Sequence record: NC_016158.1
DNA: 49,576 bases
Direction: 5' to 3' (one strand)
Source of the DNA: Escherichia phage HK639
Shown here one piece after another: positions 3,676-49,559 of the stretch (the stretch's first letter is position 1; every line of letters starts with the position of its first letter). The notes under the pieces are model-generated. The model was not told the DNA's origin, made no database searches, and saw only the letters and a program-made list of their open reading frames with translations. Both the position numbers and the translations under genes were made by a program.

Positions 3676-4782
3676 ATGGCCCGCTCCGTTAACGACCGCC
3701 TGCAGGACGAAACGATAGCGCACGGCCTGTATGTAAACCGCTACGGTACTGGCGTCGCTCGTCGGATGGTGGCGCTGCTCAGCAAGATGGATGCCGACCT
3801 GGCTGCCAAACTGCTGGTGCTGCTGGATGGTAAGCGTGCCGATACCTACAGCGCTCGCCGCTTGGCTTCGCTGCTGGCTGGTGTGCGCGTACTGAATCAA
3901 CAGGCCTATGAACCGGTGAATGCTGCGCTGGCACGTGAACTGACGCGCTACGTTGAGTATGAGGTCGGTTATCAGTTTGACCTTTTCAGCAACATCATTC
4001 CGAAGCAGATCCTCAGGCATGTACCGCTCCAGAGCATCGCGCCTGAGCAGGTTTACGCCTCAGCAGTGGCTCAGCCATTCCAGGGGCGCTTGCTGAAGGA
4101 GTGGGGCCAGAAGCTTGAAACGGATCGGCTGGATAAAATCACCAACGCTGTGCGCACCGGTTTCCTTCAGGGTGAAACGGTAGATCAGATCGTTAAACGC
4201 GTTGCCGGAACGCAGAAACTCAATCGTGAAGATGGGGTGATTAACGCCTCACGTCGCGACCTGGCGGTGGTGGCCCGCACGGCTGTAAATCACATGGCCG
4301 CTACTGCGCGTCAGGAGTTCGCACAGGGCAACAGCGATATCGTAAAGGCCAAACAGTGGTCCTCAACGCTGGACACTCATACCAGCCAGTGGTGCATTAT
4401 CCGCGACCGAAAGCTTTACACGCTCGACGGCAAGCCGCTGGGGCATGAAATTCCGTATCTGCGCGGACCCGGCAAAATTCATTTCTGCTGTCGCTCCGGT
4501 GAAATCCTGATTACCAAATCGTGGGAAGAGATGCAGATAGCCTCTGGCGAGCTGAGCATCGCCACGCGCGCCTCAATGGACGGACAGGTGCCATCGCATA
4601 CCAGCTATGCCGAATGGCTCGTCAGGCAACCGTACGCACGGCAGGAGCAGGTGCTGGGCGTTACTCGCGCGCGGATGCTGCGTGACGGCAAAATCACGGT
4701 ACCAGAGATGTTCAACGATGCCGGGGAGTTCCTTACCTTGGACGAACTGCGCCGCGTGGATGCGTCGGCGTTTGAGGGGTAA
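3676..4782 (+). CDS. Head morphogenesis protein (Mu F / SPP1 gp7-like minor head protein)
   Basis: 368 aa; ATG 3676 lies 2 nt after the portal stop (track start 3652 is inside portal); position after portal is typical. Confidence 0.6.
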   Translation: MARSVNDRLQDETIAHGLYVNRYGTGVARRMVALLSKMDADLAAKLLVLLDGKRADTYSARRLASLLAGVRVLNQQAYEPVNAALARELTRYVEYEVGYQFDLFSNIIPKQILRHVPLQSIAPEQVYASAVAQPFQGRLLKEWGQKLETDRLDKITNAVRTGFLQGETVDQIVKRVAGTQKLNREDGVINASRRDLAVVARTAVNHMAATARQEFAQGNSDIVKAKQWSSTLDTHTSQWCIIRDRKLYTLDGKPLGHEIPYLRGPGKIHFCCRSGEILITKSWEEMQIASGELSIATRASMDGQVPSHTSYAEWLVRQPYARQEQVLGVTRARMLRDGKITVPEMFNDAGEFLTLDELRRVDASAFEG

Positions 4783-33693: not shown

Positions 33694-33765
33694 TGGTGGA
33701 GTGCTCCGGATTCGAACCGAAGTTTTCATGGGTGATCAGTCCATGCAGGCCCAGCCACACCCCAC
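33694..33765 (-). ncRNA. tRNA-like element (canonical T-arm and ...CCA end, reduced D-arm, 9-nt anticodon-like loop)
   Basis: Minus strand reads GTGGGGTG-TGGCTGGGCCTG-CATGG-ACTGATCAC-CCATG-AAAAC-TTCGG-TTCGAAT-CCGGA-G-CACTCCAC-CA. An 8-bp closing stem is possible. It does not fit a standard cloverleaf. Confidence 0.4.
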
Positions 33766-43767: not shown

Positions 43768-44265
43768 ATGAAACTGGAATTAACCAACGACCAACATCAA
43801 TGGGTAGACCAGTGGCTCCAGTTGTGGGGCGCATGGTGCCAGACCGGCAAGATTGATAAAGCGATGATCAACATGATTGCCAGATTCATGGCTACCGTCG
43901 AGCCCCAGCAAGCATCACGGCCGGTATGTAGTGATGATGACGGAATGCTCATTGATGCTGTCATTCGCCACTACCTGAAGAATGTGGATGAAAATGCCTG
44001 GCGGGTTATCTTCGCCTACTATGTCTGCAACTCCAGCGAGATCCGAATTGCATCATGGCAGCATGCAGTAAGTAAGCCTCGCCTTATGAAGACGCGTGGC
44101 GGAAATCAGTACAAACACCCAAGCATCTCGACAATCCGTAGAGAGGTGAAGCAAATCATCAATGCTTCATTGTTCTGTTTATACCAACCGCTTCAAAATG
44201 CGTTTAACGATCGCGAAAATGTGAGGAAAGTTGCAAATAAATCACACAACGTGCTTGCAATTTAA
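43768..44265 (+). CDS. Q: Late antiterminator Q
   Basis: LQLWGAW...RPVCSDDDGMLIDAVI matches the phage-82-type Q pattern LERWGAW...RPQCCDDDAM; last gene before the late region. Confidence 0.8.
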   Translation: MKLELTNDQHQWVDQWLQLWGAWCQTGKIDKAMINMIARFMATVEPQQASRPVCSDDDGMLIDAVIRHYLKNVDENAWRVIFAYYVCNSSEIRIASWQHAVSKPRLMKTRGGNQYKHPSISTIRREVKQIINASLFCLYQPLQNAFNDRENVRKVANKSHNVLAI

Positions 44266-44330
44266 TGAACAAATGAGCAAACTAATTCGTATATGTTGCC
44301 ATTGTTGTGTGTAACATGAATAAATTCCAA

Positions 44331-44355
44331 GCCCCGCCATCGTGCGGGGCTTTTT
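44331..44355 (+). terminator. tR'-like intrinsic terminator downstream of Q
   Basis: GCCCCGC-CATCGT-GCGGGGC followed by TTTTT, about 65 nt after the Q stop. Confidence 0.8.
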
Positions 44356-44362
44356 CGTTTCA

Positions 44363-44437
44363 GGGTCAGAAGCACAGCGGTTGTGCGTTCGGCTGTTAAC
44401 CGAATGGTCGAAGGTTCGAATCCTTCCTGTCCCGCCA
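44363..44437 (+). tRNA. tRNA-Asn (GUU)
   Basis: Hand-folded cloverleaf: acceptor GGGTCAG/CTGTCCC (one T-T mismatch), D-arm GCAC-AGCGGTT-GTGC, anticodon arm TTCGG-CTGTTAA-CCGAA, T-arm GAAGG-TTCGAAT-CCTTC, G-CCA. A at position 8 is unusual. Confidence 0.75.
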
Positions 44438-44441
44438 ATTC

Positions 44442-44517
<76 letters not shown>

Positions 44518-44714
44518 GTTTAAGCTTTTCGGTCTGCGATGATGGGGTCCCCGGAGTGACTGAAAAGCGACCTAGTTTTGAATGGGCGCTGCTTTTTGCA
44601 AAATTGCTGTGTGAAAATGCTGACCTTTGGGTTCAGCGCTCATCCAAAAGCATCTCGTTAAAATCCAGTTAACCTCGGGTGGTTTGTTGGGTGAGGTGCC
44701 TCAAATTCAAATAG

Positions 44715-44736
44715 CCTCGCTTCGGCGAGGTTTTTT
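44715..44736 (+). terminator. Intrinsic terminator
   Basis: CCTCGC-TTCG-GCGAGG followed by TTTTTT. Confidence 0.75.
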
Positions 44737-44953
44737 CATTTGTAAGACAACCATCAGGAAGCAATGGCTAATCTCATTGACTGCAGGAATAAGTTCGGCG
44801 TAATTTATTTCTGTGGTGAATCCTTTCTAAGCGAAAGGGCGTTCCAGCCAACTGCTATCTGCAGGTATGCGCGCGACTTTGCTGGCTGGAGTAGAGTCAC
44901 CGGGAGGCACCCGGCACCATGACAACAACAATACAGTTTCAAATTCCTTGAGA

Positions 44954-44981
44954 GCCTGCCGTAAAAAGCAGGCCTTTTTTT
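44954..44981 (+). terminator. Intrinsic terminator
   Basis: GCCTGC-CGTAAAAA-GCAGGC followed by CTTTTTTT. Confidence 0.7.
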
Positions 44982-45137
44982 ATGAAATTGCGAACTGCTG
45001 CTACGCTTGAAAAGTGGGTTGAAGATAACTGCCTGATGGTTCTCCTGAACCATAGTGAATCAGCCTGATACTGTCTCACTCTGGTCAGTTAGCAAAACTC
45101 ACGACTACCTACCTTACTTACTAATAGTCACTCATTA

Positions 45138-45164
45138 GCCCGCCTTCAAAAGCGGGCTTTTTTT
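45138..45164 (+). terminator. Intrinsic terminator
   Basis: GCCCGC-CTTCAAAA-GCGGGC followed by TTTTTTT. Confidence 0.75.
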
Positions 45165-45216
45165 ATCTCCCCTCAATTTTTCTGAGAGGATTCGCAGCAA
45201 TAACAGAGGGGGCGTA

Positions 45217-45606
45217 ATGTCCGATCCATTAACCGGCACTGGTGCAGTTCTCGGGGGCGGCCTGTTGGGCTCAGTCCTGTACGGTGTCTTTACTCATACA
45301 GATTTCGGCGTGGTGTTTGGAGCGTTTGGTGGTGCGGTGTTTTACGTCGCGACAGCTGCAAACCTTACGCGTGCTCGCCTGGCTGCATATTTTCTGACTT
45401 CATTCATTGTTGGAGTGCTAGGCGCCGGGTTTGTTGGCTCATGGCTAAATGCTGCCTCGAGTTATGAAAAACCACTGGATGCACTCGGAGCAGTGATTCT
45501 GTCTGCGCTGTGTATAAAAATCCTAACTTTTCTTAATAACCAGGATTTGAACAGCCTGTTCGGCTTTTTCTCACGGTTACGCGGAGGAGGGGGGAATGGT
45601 AATTGA
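45217..45606 (+). CDS. Holin-like membrane protein
   Basis: 129 aa, 3-4 glycine-rich TM helices, first gene of the lysis cassette. Confidence 0.65.
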   Translation: MSDPLTGTGAVLGGGLLGSVLYGVFTHTDFGVVFGAFGGAVFYVATAANLTRARLAAYFLTSFIVGVLGAGFVGSWLNAASSYEKPLDALGAVILSALCIKILTFLNNQDLNSLFGFFSRLRGGGGNGN

Positions 45607-45874
45607 CCCGTCAGCTGTCTTTAATGCGTTTATCTGCTCGGTGATCGTCGTCGTTCTGATGTTCTACCAGCGCCATGGTGCCCGGCACCGTCCTTTCATC
45701 TCAATCCTGGCGTATATAACCATCCTGGTTTACGCCGTAATCCCGTGGCAATTCATCTTCGGCCTCTATCGTGACTCCAGTTGGCTGGTGGTGGTGGCAA
45801 ACCTCCTGATATGCGCAGCTGTTATGAAGGTCCGGGGAAATCTGGCGCGTCTGGTTGATCTTCTGAGGCACTAA
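45596..45874 (+). CDS. Second holin/antiholin-like membrane protein
   Basis: 92 aa, three hydrophobic helices, overlaps the neighbours. Confidence 0.6.
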   Translation: MVIDPSAVFNAFICSVIVVVLMFYQRHGARHRPFISILAYITILVYAVIPWQFIFGLYRDSSWLVVVANLLICAAVMKVRGNLARLVDLLRH

Positions 45875-46503
45875 TGAACCAAATACTATTTCAAAAGGCG
45901 GCAGGTATAAGCGCCGGTCTAGCCGTGCGCTGGTTTCACTATATCGATGCTGCAATGAAGGAATTCGGCATAACCGCGCCGCTCGATCAGGCCATGTTTA
46001 TCGCGCAGATGGGCCACGAGTCCGGCGGCTTCACCCGGCTGGTGGAAAACCTGAACTATTCGGCAGAAAACCTGGTATCTACGTTTGGCAAGCATCGCAT
46101 TACTGCACAGCAGGCCGCCGCACTCGGCAGAACGGCAACGCAACCGGCAAATCAAAAAGCGATAGCCAATCTGGTTTATGGCGGTGAGTGGGGCAAAAAG
46201 AACCTGGGCAACCAGGTTGCTGGTGATGGCTGGAAATATCGCGGTCGCGGCCTGAAGCAAATCACCGGGCTCAGCAATTACCGCAACTGTGGCCACGCGC
46301 TGAAGTTGGACCTTGTAACCCAGCCTGAATTGCTGGAACAGGATGAATATGCTGCGCGCTCCGCTGCATGGTTCTATGTCTCGCACGGATGCCTGCTCCA
46401 TTCCGGCGACGTGGAGCGCGTGACGCTGCTTATCAACGGCGGCCGTAACGGGCTGGAACAACGGCGCACCCTGTTTAACCTGGCGAAATCTGTGCTGGTG
46501 TGA
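45874..46503 (+). CDS. Endolysin, glycoside hydrolase family 19 (chitinase-like)
   Basis: MFIAQMGHESGGF and YRGRGLKQITGLSNY motifs. Confidence 0.85.
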   Translation: MNQILFQKAAGISAGLAVRWFHYIDAAMKEFGITAPLDQAMFIAQMGHESGGFTRLVENLNYSAENLVSTFGKHRITAQQAAALGRTATQPANQKAIANLVYGGEWGKKNLGNQVAGDGWKYRGRGLKQITGLSNYRNCGHALKLDLVTQPELLEQDEYAARSAAWFYVSHGCLLHSGDVERVTLLINGGRNGLEQRRTLFNLAKSVLV

Positions 46504-46510
46504 GGTCACT

Positions 46511-46786
46511 ATGGGGTTTGAAACTTTAATTGGTATTGCTGCAGCAGTCATTGCCGCCATCGCTGGCGCTTTCGGCCTGGGCCATATTCGCGGCTCAAGC
46601 AAAGCAGAAGCAAAAGCAGTTCAGCAGCGCACCGAAGATAACGCAGCTGCAACGGTCGCAGCAGCAGATCGCCGTGTAGAGACAACGAAAGAGGCCAGCA
46701 ATGTACAGCAAACTGTTAACCATATGTCTGGCGATGATGTTGATCGCGAGCTGCGCGAAAACTTCACCCGCCCCGGTGGTGATTGA
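46511..46786 (+). CDS. i-spanin (Rz-like)
   Basis: N-terminal TM (LIGIAAAVIAAIAGAFGLG), then a charged periplasmic part; the o-spanin ORF overlaps its 3' end. Confidence 0.6.
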   Translation: MGFETLIGIAAAVIAAIAGAFGLGHIRGSSKAEAKAVQQRTEDNAAATVAAADRRVETTKEASNVQQTVNHMSGDDVDRELRENFTRPGGD

Positions 46787-46928
46787 TACGGGCTGCCTGT
46801 GGACCCGGATTATCTATCTGACAAACCACGATATCGACGTTATGGACCGCCAGACGAAGAAAGACATCCTGGCGCATAACAAAGCGTGGCAGGCGAACTG
46901 TCAGAAACCAACAGAGAAAAAAATATGA
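46701..46928 (+). CDS. o-spanin lipoprotein (Rz1-like)
   Basis: Lipobox IAS-C18; starts inside the i-spanin gene in another frame. Confidence 0.6.
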   Translation: MYSKLLTICLAMMLIASCAKTSPAPVVIDTGCLWTRIIYLTNHDIDVMDRQTKKDILAHNKAWQANCQKPTEKKI

Positions 46929-47206
46929 GCGAAGCTAAACCGCAGGACGGCACTACCGTTAAAGGCTATCGAACCTTATCGCCTGGTGATATTGAGCGTA
47001 TGAATCGCCTGAAGGGTGTCAGCCGACACTTCTGTAATTTACATGATACAGAACGTGAGCATGTCAACGATGAGTTATCTGCTACCGGCAACCACTCAGC
47101 TGAAGCAAACGAAGCTGCCCGCTGTCTCGCTATTGCGCGCACCAAAATGCAGGAAGCCTGCATGTGGGCATGTCGTGCCGTAGCCCGTCCAGACGCTGAC
47201 TGTTAG
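46925..47206 (+). CDS. Acb2/Tad1-hairpin-like protein (candidate cyclic-oligonucleotide sponge)
   Basis: 93 aa from ATG 46925 (ATGA overlap). VKGYRTLSPGDIERMNRLK and AARCLAIARTKMQEACMWACRAVARP fit my recollection of the family pattern GYR.L...E...MN.IK ... RW.AIARTxLQxGFMw..RAva.P. Confidence 0.45.
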   Translation: MSEAKPQDGTTVKGYRTLSPGDIERMNRLKGVSRHFCNLHDTEREHVNDELSATGNHSAEANEAARCLAIARTKMQEACMWACRAVARPDADC

Positions 47207-47223
47207 CCAAAAAACAAACATAG

Positions 47224-47248
47224 AGCCTCGCAATAGCGGGGCTTTTTT
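47224..47248 (+). terminator. Intrinsic terminator
   Basis: AGCCTCGC-AATA-GCGGGGCT followed by TTTTT. Confidence 0.75.
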
Positions 47249-47378
47249 ATGCGCATCTCACGCGCATCTCAACGAGAGCCTTTCAGTAAGCGAGCCTGAG
47301 AAATGCCGTTATAGGTGGCGACCTCTCTCGGGCGGCTTTTCTGTGAGACAGGCTCACTTTCTAAAAGGTAAAGACGCT
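47243..47378 (+). promoter_or_regulatory. Structured leader, copy B (paralogue of 10022-10140)
   Basis: TTTTTTATGCGCATCTCAcGCGCATCTCAa, then CTTTCAG. Hairpin GCGAGCCTG (47290-47298) with CAGGCTCAC (47349-47357). Ends CTAAAAGG...ATGAATAA. Confidence 0.55.
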
Positions 47379-47903
47379 ATGAATAATCCGTCAGTTATTC
47401 CGGCCTTTGACTTCCGAGAAATGGTGCAAGCCAAAAACGGAGAGGTCGTTACCACATCCCGAAAAGTTGCCACGTACTTCGGAAAGCGACATGGTGATGT
47501 GCTCAGGAAAATCGAGCAGGTTAAGGCCGATTGCTCAAGTGAGTTTAGCCAACGCAATTTTGCGTCGGCCGATTATATCGATGAGCAGGGTAAGGTTCGC
47601 CCGATGTATAGCCTGACGAAAGATGGCTGGATCATGGTTGTGATGGGGTTCACCGGGAAAGCTGCTGCGGCTATCAAAGAAAGCTACATTTCAGCTTTCA
47701 ATTGGATGTCTGAGCAACTTAGCCGTCGCCTGGCCATGGGTGAAGAAATGCAGCACCGCTACGCCATCAAAGAAACGCGCTCAAAGTTGAAGGGCACGAT
47801 CGGCAGCCGGTTGATGAACGAGCGGAAGAAAGAGAAACGTGTTCTGGCTGTGGAGCATGAGCACATCATGCAGGTAACGCAGCCTGAATTGCTGATCGAA
47901 TAA
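47379..47903 (+). CDS. Rha-family phage regulatory protein (possible antirepressor)
   Basis: 174 aa from ATG 47379; TTSRKVATYFGKRHGDVLRKIEQV matches the Rha domain signature. Confidence 0.7.
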   Translation: MNNPSVIPAFDFREMVQAKNGEVVTTSRKVATYFGKRHGDVLRKIEQVKADCSSEFSQRNFASADYIDEQGKVRPMYSLTKDGWIMVVMGFTGKAAAAIKESYISAFNWMSEQLSRRLAMGEEMQHRYAIKETRSKLKGTIGSRLMNERKKEKRVLAVEHEHIMQVTQPELLIE

Positions 47904-48003
47904 GCCATTACAGAAGCTCCTTAATAGAGAAAACCAGAGCCATGAAATAGCATGGCCTATGCCGGTTTTATTTGAAATATTTATCATCGCTTGTGGTGCA
48001 ATT

Positions 48004-49029
48004 ATGAAAGGCTTATTTATCCCTGGTGTGACTGAGCTTGGCGCATCATCAGATAGTTTTCCATCCGGCATAGTTATTCCCGGTGCTAATGTTATGACGC
48101 TGCCGCCTGGCGAGTGGGTTGACCTTAGCGATATCGATCTTACCTCCTCTGCACTGGATTATCGGGTTTCGTTCAGCTGCGCAAGCAACCATGCATACTA
48201 CTCAGCTGACGGAACTATTCAGTTCGCTGCACCTGACGTATGGCCGCTTGAGTACCGAAATGGTGTGGCAGTTGGAAGGCATGAGCCTGAAGTGCAGGCG
48301 ACCAACACCTACTATACGGGGGGGGTAGGGGCAGTGCGTGCGGCAATAAGTAATTCCGCAGAAAGAATACTGAATACCCCGACATTCAGGCTTACAGAAT
48401 CTAATTTGGAAGGGCAACACTACGCTGCATGTCCGCAGAAAGTTACGGCGGGAAAGAAGTACAGCTTTAGCGGTTTTATTCAAAAAACAGAGAAGTCGAG
48501 AGGGTATGCATTTATCCTTTTAGCGCACCAATTGATTGTTGATGCGCAGATTTTATCTGTAATAAATATCTCTGATGCGTCAGTGTCATTCACCGGTATT
48601 TCTGATGGACTCACTACAACCGCAGAGTTTATCTCTCCCGGCGTAATACGGTTTTCCGGGACTGTTATTGCGACAAAATCCGTAGAGTCACCTTCCTATA
48701 TAATCTATATGGGGCCATCAACCAGTATCACACCCGGTGGCGCAACCTACGTTGGAGATTCATCATATTCTCTGGAGTTTGCAGCACTGCAGCTTGAAGA
48801 TAATCCCTGTTCAACATCACCAATCATTGCATCCAGCGCTGCTGCAACACGATCCAAGGCTTTTGCGAACATCAAGAACCCCAGCAGAATTGCAACCTCT
48901 GTGCGTTTGCACTATAGCGACGCAACGACCAAGCAAATCGATTTTGGCGGTGCAGAAGAGGTTGAAATACCAGCATCAACGACTGACTGGGGTAAGCGCT
49001 ACATCCAACGAATCGAGTACATAAGATAA
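48004..49029 (+). CDS. Lectin/jelly-roll-type virion-associated protein (fibre or head-spike-like)
   Basis: 341 aa. LQLEDNPCSTSPIIASSAAATRSKAF fits the QLE...TS.I.T...A.TR motif I associate with LamG-like fibre/spike domains. Confidence 0.45.
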   Translation: MKGLFIPGVTELGASSDSFPSGIVIPGANVMTLPPGEWVDLSDIDLTSSALDYRVSFSCASNHAYYSADGTIQFAAPDVWPLEYRNGVAVGRHEPEVQATNTYYTGGVGAVRAAISNSAERILNTPTFRLTESNLEGQHYAACPQKVTAGKKYSFSGFIQKTEKSRGYAFILLAHQLIVDAQILSVINISDASVSFTGISDGLTTTAEFISPGVIRFSGTVIATKSVESPSYIIYMGPSTSITPGGATYVGDSSYSLEFAALQLEDNPCSTSPIIASSAAATRSKAFANIKNPSRIATSVRLHYSDATTKQIDFGGAEEVEIPASTTDWGKRYIQRIEYIR

Positions 49030-49313
49030 TGAGCAGGCTGACATATTTACGATTCCCTGATGAGGCTACTGCGAGAGCAGCCACTGGTTGGTGGTCTGAG
49101 GGGGCTGGATGGGCAGTACCGACTAAGTCTATTCAGTTTTCTGTGCGGGGCGTTCTGTATAACAGTGACGGTGAATATGACGAGGCCGGAAATGTGATAA
49201 AGGAGCCGACCCTAAAGGACGGTTATCACATTGATGTTATCTATGGCCTCATACCTGAAGCTGCGCAGAAATTTATCATCAATCCATCAACACCTGAATA
49301 CGTACTGGCGTAG
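49029..49313 (+). CDS. Small conserved fibre-neighbourhood protein, unknown function
   Basis: 94 aa. The pattern LRFPDEATA...DGYHIDVIY...INPSTPEYVLA recurs next to fibre genes in other phages (recall only). Confidence 0.45.
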   Translation: MSRLTYLRFPDEATARAATGWWSEGAGWAVPTKSIQFSVRGVLYNSDGEYDEAGNVIKEPTLKDGYHIDVIYGLIPEAAQKFIINPSTPEYVLA

Positions 49314-49322
49314 GGGGGGCAC

Positions 49323-49559
49323 ATGGCAACAGAAAGAATGACAATCGGTAGTGAGCCAGTTCAGATAACTGACGGCACTAACAGCGCCCTAATTTCAGTT
49401 TTTGGCGGCTACCCTATCAGTTTTGCTGATTCAGATGTTGAGCCTGACAAATCAGTGGGCGACATCATCAGGGATAAGATGGTGGTAAACCCGCCATTAA
49501 AAGTTTGGCTGTGGTCTGATGGGCCAGGGCCTCATGAAGTTGCAGTAACCCGATGGTAG
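49323..49559 (+). CDS. Hypothetical protein
   Basis: 78 aa, SD GGGGGG, last complete ORF before the window end. Confidence 0.45.
   Translation: MATERMTIGSEPVQITDGTNSALISVFGGYPISFADSDVEPDKSVGDIIRDKMVVNPPLKVWLWSDGPGPHEVAVTRW

Follow-up and report, generated by a model that had tools for sequence, protein, structure and literature searches.

Acb2 proteins, their mechanism and their wide spread in enterobacterial phages have already been published. Two members with structures in the PDB serve as references here, Acb2 of phage PaMx33 (p26; PDB 8h2j, 8h2x, 8ixz) and Vs.4 of phage T4 (PDB 7uq2). In PaMx33 Acb2, Y11 stacks on a base and K26 forms a salt bridge with a phosphate of cyclic dinucleotides, L14 and P90 line the pocket, and the substitutions Y11A and K26A abolish binding. 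The pocket for cA3 in the same protein consists of R67 and T74, with A70 and I71, and a helix kink at E64 (E-P-G-R) is required to accommodate this ligand. T4 Vs.4 binds 3′,3′-cGAMP with a KD of approximately 84 nM. It carries D61 at the position of the cA3-pocket arginine and does not bind cA3, and its D61R mutant, in which the arginine is restored, still does not bind it. Hadary et al. reported that, of 46 Acb2 homologues tested, 10 are inhibitors of type I Thoeris. One of these, Acb2_43, in which additional strands at both termini form the pocket, binds 3′cADPR without inhibiting CBASS. The ligand of a new member therefore cannot be read from family membership alone, as some homologues bind 3′cADPR and not cGAMP. 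Tad1 and Acb2 are both described as hexameric nucleotide sponges.

We analyzed the complete genome of Escherichia phage HK639 (NC_016158.1; 49,576 nucleotides), hereafter the window, around the late gene HK639_72, which GenBank labels 'hypothetical protein'. The features of the region are listed below.

43768-44265, + strand: Q-type late antiterminator (Pfam PF06530, 77 bits)
45217-45606 and 45596-45874, + strand: two overlapping holin genes (Pfam PF16931, E 1e-34, and PF05449, E 1e-18)
45874-46503, + strand: GH19 endolysin (Pfam PF00182; annotated as endolysin in related phages)
46511-46786, + strand: i-spanin with an N-terminal transmembrane helix, homologous to the Rz-like spanins of CharmingMan and Fostie
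46701-46928, + strand: o-spanin, a 75-aa lipoprotein with the lipobox LIASC; overlaps the i-spanin gene
46925-46928, + strand: ATGA start/stop overlap, formed by the acb2 ATG and the o-spanin TGA, read from the sequence
46925-47206, + strand: acb2 homologue HK639_72 (93 aa, 10.3 kDa; predicted two-helix hairpin)
47224-47248, + strand: intrinsic-terminator-like hairpin GCCTCGC-AATA-GCGGGGC followed by T6, 18 nt past the acb2 stop

The initial annotation had described a 93-aa ORF whose ATG overlaps the o-spanin stop codon, and a direct reading of the sequence bears this out. The ORF runs for 93 codons on the + strand from ATG (46925-46927) to TAG (47204-47206), and the o-spanin TGA (46926-46928) lies within the ATGA at its start. 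Both peptides quoted in that annotation are present in the product, gp72, the N-terminal one (VKGYRTLSPGDIERMNRLK) as residues 12-30 and the C-terminal one (AARCLAIARTKMQEACMWACRAVARP) as residues 64-89. The ORF is not a chance one, because 389 homologues were detected with E ≤ 1e-3 and the alignment of a 45-sequence clade has a mean column identity of 76%. The gene and the HK639 genome have the same G+C content (0.525), and we rejected base composition as a mark of a foreign gene.

In GenBank, HK639_72 starts from the GTG at 46886 and is 106 aa long. The great majority of homologues have 93-94 aa and begin with MSEAKPQDG; therefore, the ATG at 46925, which the initial annotation had also chosen, is favored over the GTG, and the GenBank N-terminus is probably 13 codons too long (46886-46924). 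Only a weak GAG Shine-Dalgarno-like element precedes the ATG. Among the homologues listed from 87 non-redundant homologous loci, every start reads ATGA because the second codon is AGC or AAT, with A as its first base. Such a start thus offers a ready-made TGA in the +1 frame to any upstream gene that runs into acb2.

We evaluated the family assignment of gp72 by profile, sequence and structure searches. The Pfam profile PF24729 (Acb2_Tad1_hairpin) matched over positions 1-58 of 58 with 63.5 bits (gathering cutoff 27, E 2.1e-17), and phrog_717 matched with E 4e-37. In a phmmer search of PDB sequences, gp72 recovered PaMx33 Acb2 (E 3.9e-8, residues 11-91) and T4 Vs.4 (E 7.3e-6), and a profile built from the 45 clade members recovered both at approximately 2e-12; with either query, nothing else in the PDB fell below E ~1. 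The AlphaFold2 single-chain model (mean pLDDT 85.8) is a helical hairpin with helices at residues 20-54 and 59-86. When this model was compared with the PDB using Foldseek, the top six matches were all Vs.4 or Acb2 chains (probability 1.00, TM 0.72-0.80), and the seventh was already non-significant (E ~0.9). The N-terminal 12 residues and the C-terminal RPDADC have low confidence in the model, yet are strongly conserved in the clade. An NCBIfam search with gp72 gave no match. A PADLOC search was also blank, as expected since PADLOC models defence and not anti-defence proteins.

By sequence and predicted fold, gp72 is thus a clear member of the Acb2 family. The initial annotation had suggested an Acb2/Tad1-type sponge and named both families for a profile comparison. 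The Acb2 part stands, as the Pfam profile, the PDB sequences, the fold and the contact residues described below all point to it, and the Tad1 part found no counterpart among PDB sequences. The hairpin domain is common to gp72 and Tad1 in PF24729; unlike PaMx33 Acb2 and T4 Vs.4, Tad1 chains were not among the PDB matches at E ≤ 10 of either the single sequence or the clade profile, assuming that the PDB copy includes Tad1 chains. We therefore consider gp72 to be of the Acb2 type rather than the Tad1 type. Close homologues in RefSeq and UniRef are already called 'Acb2/Tad1 domain-containing protein' or 'DUF7681 family protein', so that gp72 is a new, uncharacterised member of a described family. 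The 'Acb2/Tad1 domain-containing' proteins of Enterobacteriaceae prophages in these databases are 66-97% identical to gp72, have the same length and show no difference of substance. What the analysis adds to the published record is modest: a revised start codon, a description of how the gene is inserted, its recurrence at the ends of lysis cassettes, and the cysteines specific to the clade.

PaMx33 Acb2 resembles gp72 in length (93 aa), in the two-helix hairpin, in sequence (~34% identity over residues 11-91) and in the conserved residues of the cGAMP and cA3 pockets. The vehicles differ: PaMx33 is a Pseudomonas siphophage, whereas HK639 is a temperate lambdoid coliphage with acb2 at the end of its lysis cassette. 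T4 Vs.4 is the best structural match to gp72 (TM 0.76-0.80), and the two proteins share MWACRAV, a KGY motif, an IAKTK/IARTK segment and a terminal QPE/RPD. T4 is, in contrast, a virulent myophage, and its Vs.4 gene is not part of a lysis cassette.

We compared the ligand-contact residues of PaMx33 Acb2 with gp72 and with 57 representatives, obtained by clustering Acb2-family homologues at 50% identity. Y11, L14, K26 and P90 of PaMx33 align to Y15, L18, K30 and P89 of gp72. These four residues are invariant in the 45 clade members and are retained in most of the 57 representatives (Y15 in 56, K30 in 55, L18 in 53 and P89 in 48). The conservation suggests that gp72 is likely to bind dinucleotides. 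In the cA3 pocket, R67, A70, I71 and T74 of PaMx33 align to R66, A69, I70 and T73 of gp72; R66 is kept in 50/57 and T73 in 43/57 of the same representatives, and gp72 thus has an arginine where T4 Vs.4 has D61. At the E-P-G-R site, however, gp72 reads E-A-A-R, with neither Pro nor Gly, and unlike PaMx33 Acb2, in which the E64-P65-G66 kink enlarges the cA3 pocket, it has an unbroken helix from 59 to 86 in the AlphaFold model and an inter-helix loop shorter by five residues. Because the Pro-Gly kink is absent, cA3 binding by gp72 is uncertain, and from the alignment and the model we would put it at roughly even odds.

These comparisons make it highly probable, by homology and predicted structure, that gp72 is an Acb2 sponge that is made late and sequesters CBASS cyclic dinucleotides. 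The ~10 kDa hairpin would assemble into a hexamer of about 62 kDa, as judged by homology with PaMx33 Acb2 and T4 Vs.4, and the hexamer would sequester, without cleaving them, the dinucleotides of CBASS cGAS-like enzymes (3′,3′-cGAMP and its relatives). Each dinucleotide would lie in a pocket between two protomers, lined by L18 and P89, with Y15 stacked on a base and K30 in a salt bridge with a phosphate. Given the presence of R66 and T73, a second, three-fold pocket that takes cA3 or cAAG may be functional as well. We propose that the CBASS effector would stay inactive and the phage would complete its cycle because the alarm nucleotides are held by gp72.

The chief competing interpretation is that the ligand range is shifted or extended: the Acb2 fold would be retained and gp72 would bind the Thoeris signal 3′cADPR or another immune nucleotide, instead of or besides the CBASS dinucleotides. 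The anti-Thoeris activity of 10 of the 46 homologues tested by Hadary et al. raises this possibility, and only as a possibility, by analogy, do we consider an anti-Thoeris role of gp72. The strong conservation of the gp72 termini (MSEAKPQDG.. and RPDADC) in the clade also fits a pocket that, as in Acb2_43, uses terminal strands. However, the gp72 model has no strands, its N-terminus is only about four residues longer than that of PaMx33 Acb2, and the cGAMP-pocket residues Y15, L18, K30 and P89 do not vary in the clade. We therefore regard this alternative as unlikely and favor the CBASS dinucleotide sponge.

The initial annotation had remarked on the cysteine content of the protein as distinguishing it from known versions. 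The five cysteines (C37, C67, C79, C83 and C93) and the DADC terminus are indeed present, but the cysteines do not distinguish gp72 from every known version, as T4 Vs.4 has a MWACRAV stretch identical to that of gp72 and the pattern is typical of the enterobacterial clade. Among the 45 sequences of this clade, C79 is invariant, conservation of C37, C83 and C93 reaches 90% or more, and most members have a cysteine at position 67. Across the 57 representatives of the wider family, the number of cysteines ranges from 0 to 8 (median 2), L, I, V or F predominate at positions 37, 79 and 83, and Cys and Trp are the commonest residues at position 67. In PaMx33 Acb2 the residues opposite C37, C67, C79 and C83 are E33, W68, M80 and I84, and C93 falls outside the alignment. 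A high cysteine content is thus a true feature of the clade, most simply explained, from the alignment and apart from the conserved C-terminal Cys, as structural packing by small hydrophobic residues. We favored this role over a metal site or disulfides because the cysteine positions are mostly hydrophobic in other members (C37, C79 and C83) or often Cys or Trp (C67).

The genes for Q, the two holins, the endolysin, the spanins and acb2 form a co-directional block on the + strand. Along the HK639 genome, terminase, portal, head and tail genes come first, followed by an integrase-sized ORF on the minus strand and then by Q, the lysis cassette and Rha; for the integrase and the structural genes, ORF layout was the only basis of assignment. 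The HK639 spanins are included in a published spanin catalogue (PMC6139136). Neither the i-spanin nor the o-spanin gave a significant Pfam match, and both were assigned by sequence features, by homology and by this catalogue; the homologues of the o-spanin found by tblastn are 66-96% identical and belong to a cluster matching phrog_1275 'Rz-like spanin'. Downstream of acb2, RNA folding of 47200-47260 gave -17.5 kcal/mol (z -2.8) and showed the terminator-like hairpin, which the automated terminator scan had not called; its 18-nt core stem was scored at -12.0 kcal/mol in a hairpin-plus-T-run search.

A promoter scan of 44200-48000 detected no sigma-70-like site on the + strand, and it likewise did not locate the late promoter. 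The same interval holds 11 terminator-like sites, against 4.8 expected. Four + strand terminator-like hairpins (44329, 44713, 44954 and 45137) lie within 44329-45158 of the gap of approximately 950 nt between Q and the first holin gene, which also contains a tRNA-Asn (44363-44437). The late promoter and its terminators are presumably located within 44329-45158. A further tRNA, tRNA-Ile (GAT), was found by ARAGORN on the - strand of the early region (33694-33763). Past Rha, three ORFs of 356, 94 and 78 aa without a Pfam match occupy 47959-49559, between the lysis/Rha and terminase genes; a 28%-identical relative of the 356-aa ORF lies downstream of an acb2 homologue in an Erwinia locus (L027).

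Placement of the gene in the late operon, as claimed in the initial annotation, agrees with the finding of Q, the lysis genes and acb2 on one strand without an intervening promoter-like site. Expression of gp72 would be restricted to lytic growth, from a Q-dependent late transcript, because acb2 has no promoter of its own and lies downstream of the final lysis gene, ahead of the terminator of the cassette. Its translation would probably occur by termination-reinitiation at the o-spanin ATGA. Since a sponge has to be present in quantity, its yield may be limited by coupling to an o-spanin that is itself weakly translated, together with the weak Shine-Dalgarno element.

It is also conceivable that acb2 is a silent or decaying passenger with no useful expression in HK639. 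The lack of its own promoter and the weak Shine-Dalgarno element would suit such a gene, as would its rarity in E. coli (16 of 5426 complete genomes) and the in-frame stop at codon 60 of the homologue in Pectobacterium phage Amona. The HK639 ORF is intact, however, it lies within a strongly transcribed late operon, and strong purifying selection is seen across the clade, including the ligand-contact residues. We thus consider a passenger very improbable and retain the interpretation of gp72 as a late-made sponge.

We examined how acb2 came to lie at this position by comparing HK639 with other phage genomes. In megablast alignments, CharmingMan, Fostie, AsXd-1, mEp390 and others lose homology to HK639 at 46900-46916, at the end of the o-spanin gene, and homology to other phages picks up again at approximately 47224. 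Direct alignment with CharmingMan, which has no acb2, showed the o-spanin gene, a short spacer, and then the same terminator and approximately 140 nt of the downstream leader. Because the terminator and leader follow the o-spanin gene of CharmingMan without acb2, the alignments indicate that acb2 is a promoter-less cargo of approximately 300 bp that was inserted after the o-spanin gene, the last gene for lysis, and ahead of the terminator of the cassette.

To describe the context of the homologues, we fetched 111 related loci (31 from genomes and 80 from viral contigs), of which 102 extended 700 nt or more upstream of the homologue. We clustered the ORFs of 60 aa or longer and scanned cluster representatives against PHROGs. 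At 60 of the 102 loci, an ORF ending no more than 450 nt upstream belonged to a cluster matching a PHROG 'Rz-like spanin' (three of the 60 were assigned on the lipobox alone), and 14 of these 60 showed the 4-nt overlap seen in HK639. At least nine spanin PHROGs were represented upstream of acb2 homologues (456, 1275, 13, 214, 3198, 2536, 5672, 312 and 1327). A further 18 loci had holin, endolysin or spanin homologues farther upstream on the same strand. Lysis genes thus lie upstream on the same strand at 78 or more of the 102 loci, which are not all independent because IMG/VR is redundant.

Many of the 18 further loci share one arrangement, seen at Klebsiella-type prophage loci (L086-L111). 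At L101 (3535-4285), for example, a GH19 endolysin gene is followed by a gene for a small membrane protein (phrog_8494, function unknown) where a spanin would be expected, and then by the acb2 homologue. At the loci of this type that were examined, the interval between the endolysin gene and the acb2 homologue contained no ORF of 60 aa or more that could be recognised as a spanin. Part of this gap in L101 is occupied by a minus-strand ORF of 60 aa (3733-3915).

A crude search detected a hairpin with a T-run 3′ of the homologue at only 7 of the 87 non-redundant loci, so that the terminator cannot be regarded as a fixed component of the module. At no fewer than four other loci (L010, L040, L067 and L072), acb2 is accompanied by GCCTCGC-AATA-GCGGGGC or by a hairpin very similar to it. 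The cassette-end position is not obligatory either, as the Amona homologue (78.5% identity) lies in a head-morphogenesis module beside a tRNA-Met. This gene (L001 4001-4282; PQ008971.1 8083-8364) is the closest phage homologue; it contains the in-frame TAA at codon 60 mentioned above, is annotated as two short CDSs, and may be a pseudogene or reflect a sequencing error.

A role of gp72 as a lysis accessory or regulator, acting for example on the spanins, would explain the fixed position and the start/stop overlap, and acb2 does recur directly after spanins of at least nine PHROG families, but this is scarcely credible for a soluble protein with a clear Acb2 fold and no transmembrane or signal sequence, given that close homologues such as that of Amona lie outside lysis cassettes and that CharmingMan and Fostie have related lysis cassettes without acb2.

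Within the interpretation of gp72 as a sponge, we considered two more specific ideas, which together we hold to be unlikely. The clade defined by 'MSEAKPQDG...RPDADC' and four to five conserved cysteines might be a distinct functional subtype, one possibility being a redox- or metal-dependent step of assembly or release, or ligands beyond CBASS dinucleotides. Otherwise, the cassette-end position might have been selected for co-expression with the lysis proteins, so that the CBASS effector could be held off only until the programmed lysis of the phage, as opposed to a merely tolerant insertion site. No paper in the literature collection searched pairs 'Acb2' with 'spanin', and nothing about gene 72 was found there.

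The distribution of the family was examined in three collections. By tblastn, homologues were detected in 145 of 50,697 phage records, mostly those of Vibrio, Klebsiella and Pseudomonas phages. A search of 1.84 billion representatives gave 107 clusters (50% identity, E ≤ 1e-3). For IMG/VR, PMC12393519 gives a figure of 4,204 non-redundant Acb2 homologues. The 16 of 5426 complete E. coli genomes noted above are those with a homologue detectable at the DNA level, for which the PGAP label is 'Acb2/Tad1 domain-containing protein' or 'DUF7681 family protein'. E. coli UMNK88 has the same context as HK639, with two holin genes, a GH19 endolysin gene, a spanin gene and the acb2 homologue.

Some of the matched proteins are much longer than gp72. 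P0140-P0143, P0150 and P0157 (239-354 aa) carry the Acb2 hairpin as a C-terminal domain, preceded by 150-270 N-terminal residues without a Pfam match; the phrog_717 match to gp72 likewise falls at profile positions 196-287 of 289. These long relatives may be sponges fused to an unknown domain, or may have miscalled starts. High scores against the 93-aa query were also obtained for two giant proteins, P0124 with 4261 aa and P0127 with 3290 aa and 12 matched stretches. We set aside P0124, a NACHT and leucine-rich-repeat protein without the Acb2 Pfam domain. P0127 had no Pfam match, and the matches to both proteins may be compositional or repeat artefacts.

For HK639_72, labelled 'hypothetical protein' in a classical lambdoid coliphage, the present analysis provides a putative function by homology and a corrected start codon. 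HK639 and many prophages of Enterobacter, Klebsiella, Serratia and Kosakonia are predicted to be able to blunt CBASS signalling. Panoptes-type guards are described as sensing nucleotide sponges (PMC12657218), and phages and prophages that bear acb2 may trigger guards of this type. Being a temperate phage of E. coli that is amenable to genetics, HK639 may offer a convenient natural system for questions of sponge timing and dose. The ends of lysis cassettes would be a practical place to seek further counter-defence cargo genes.
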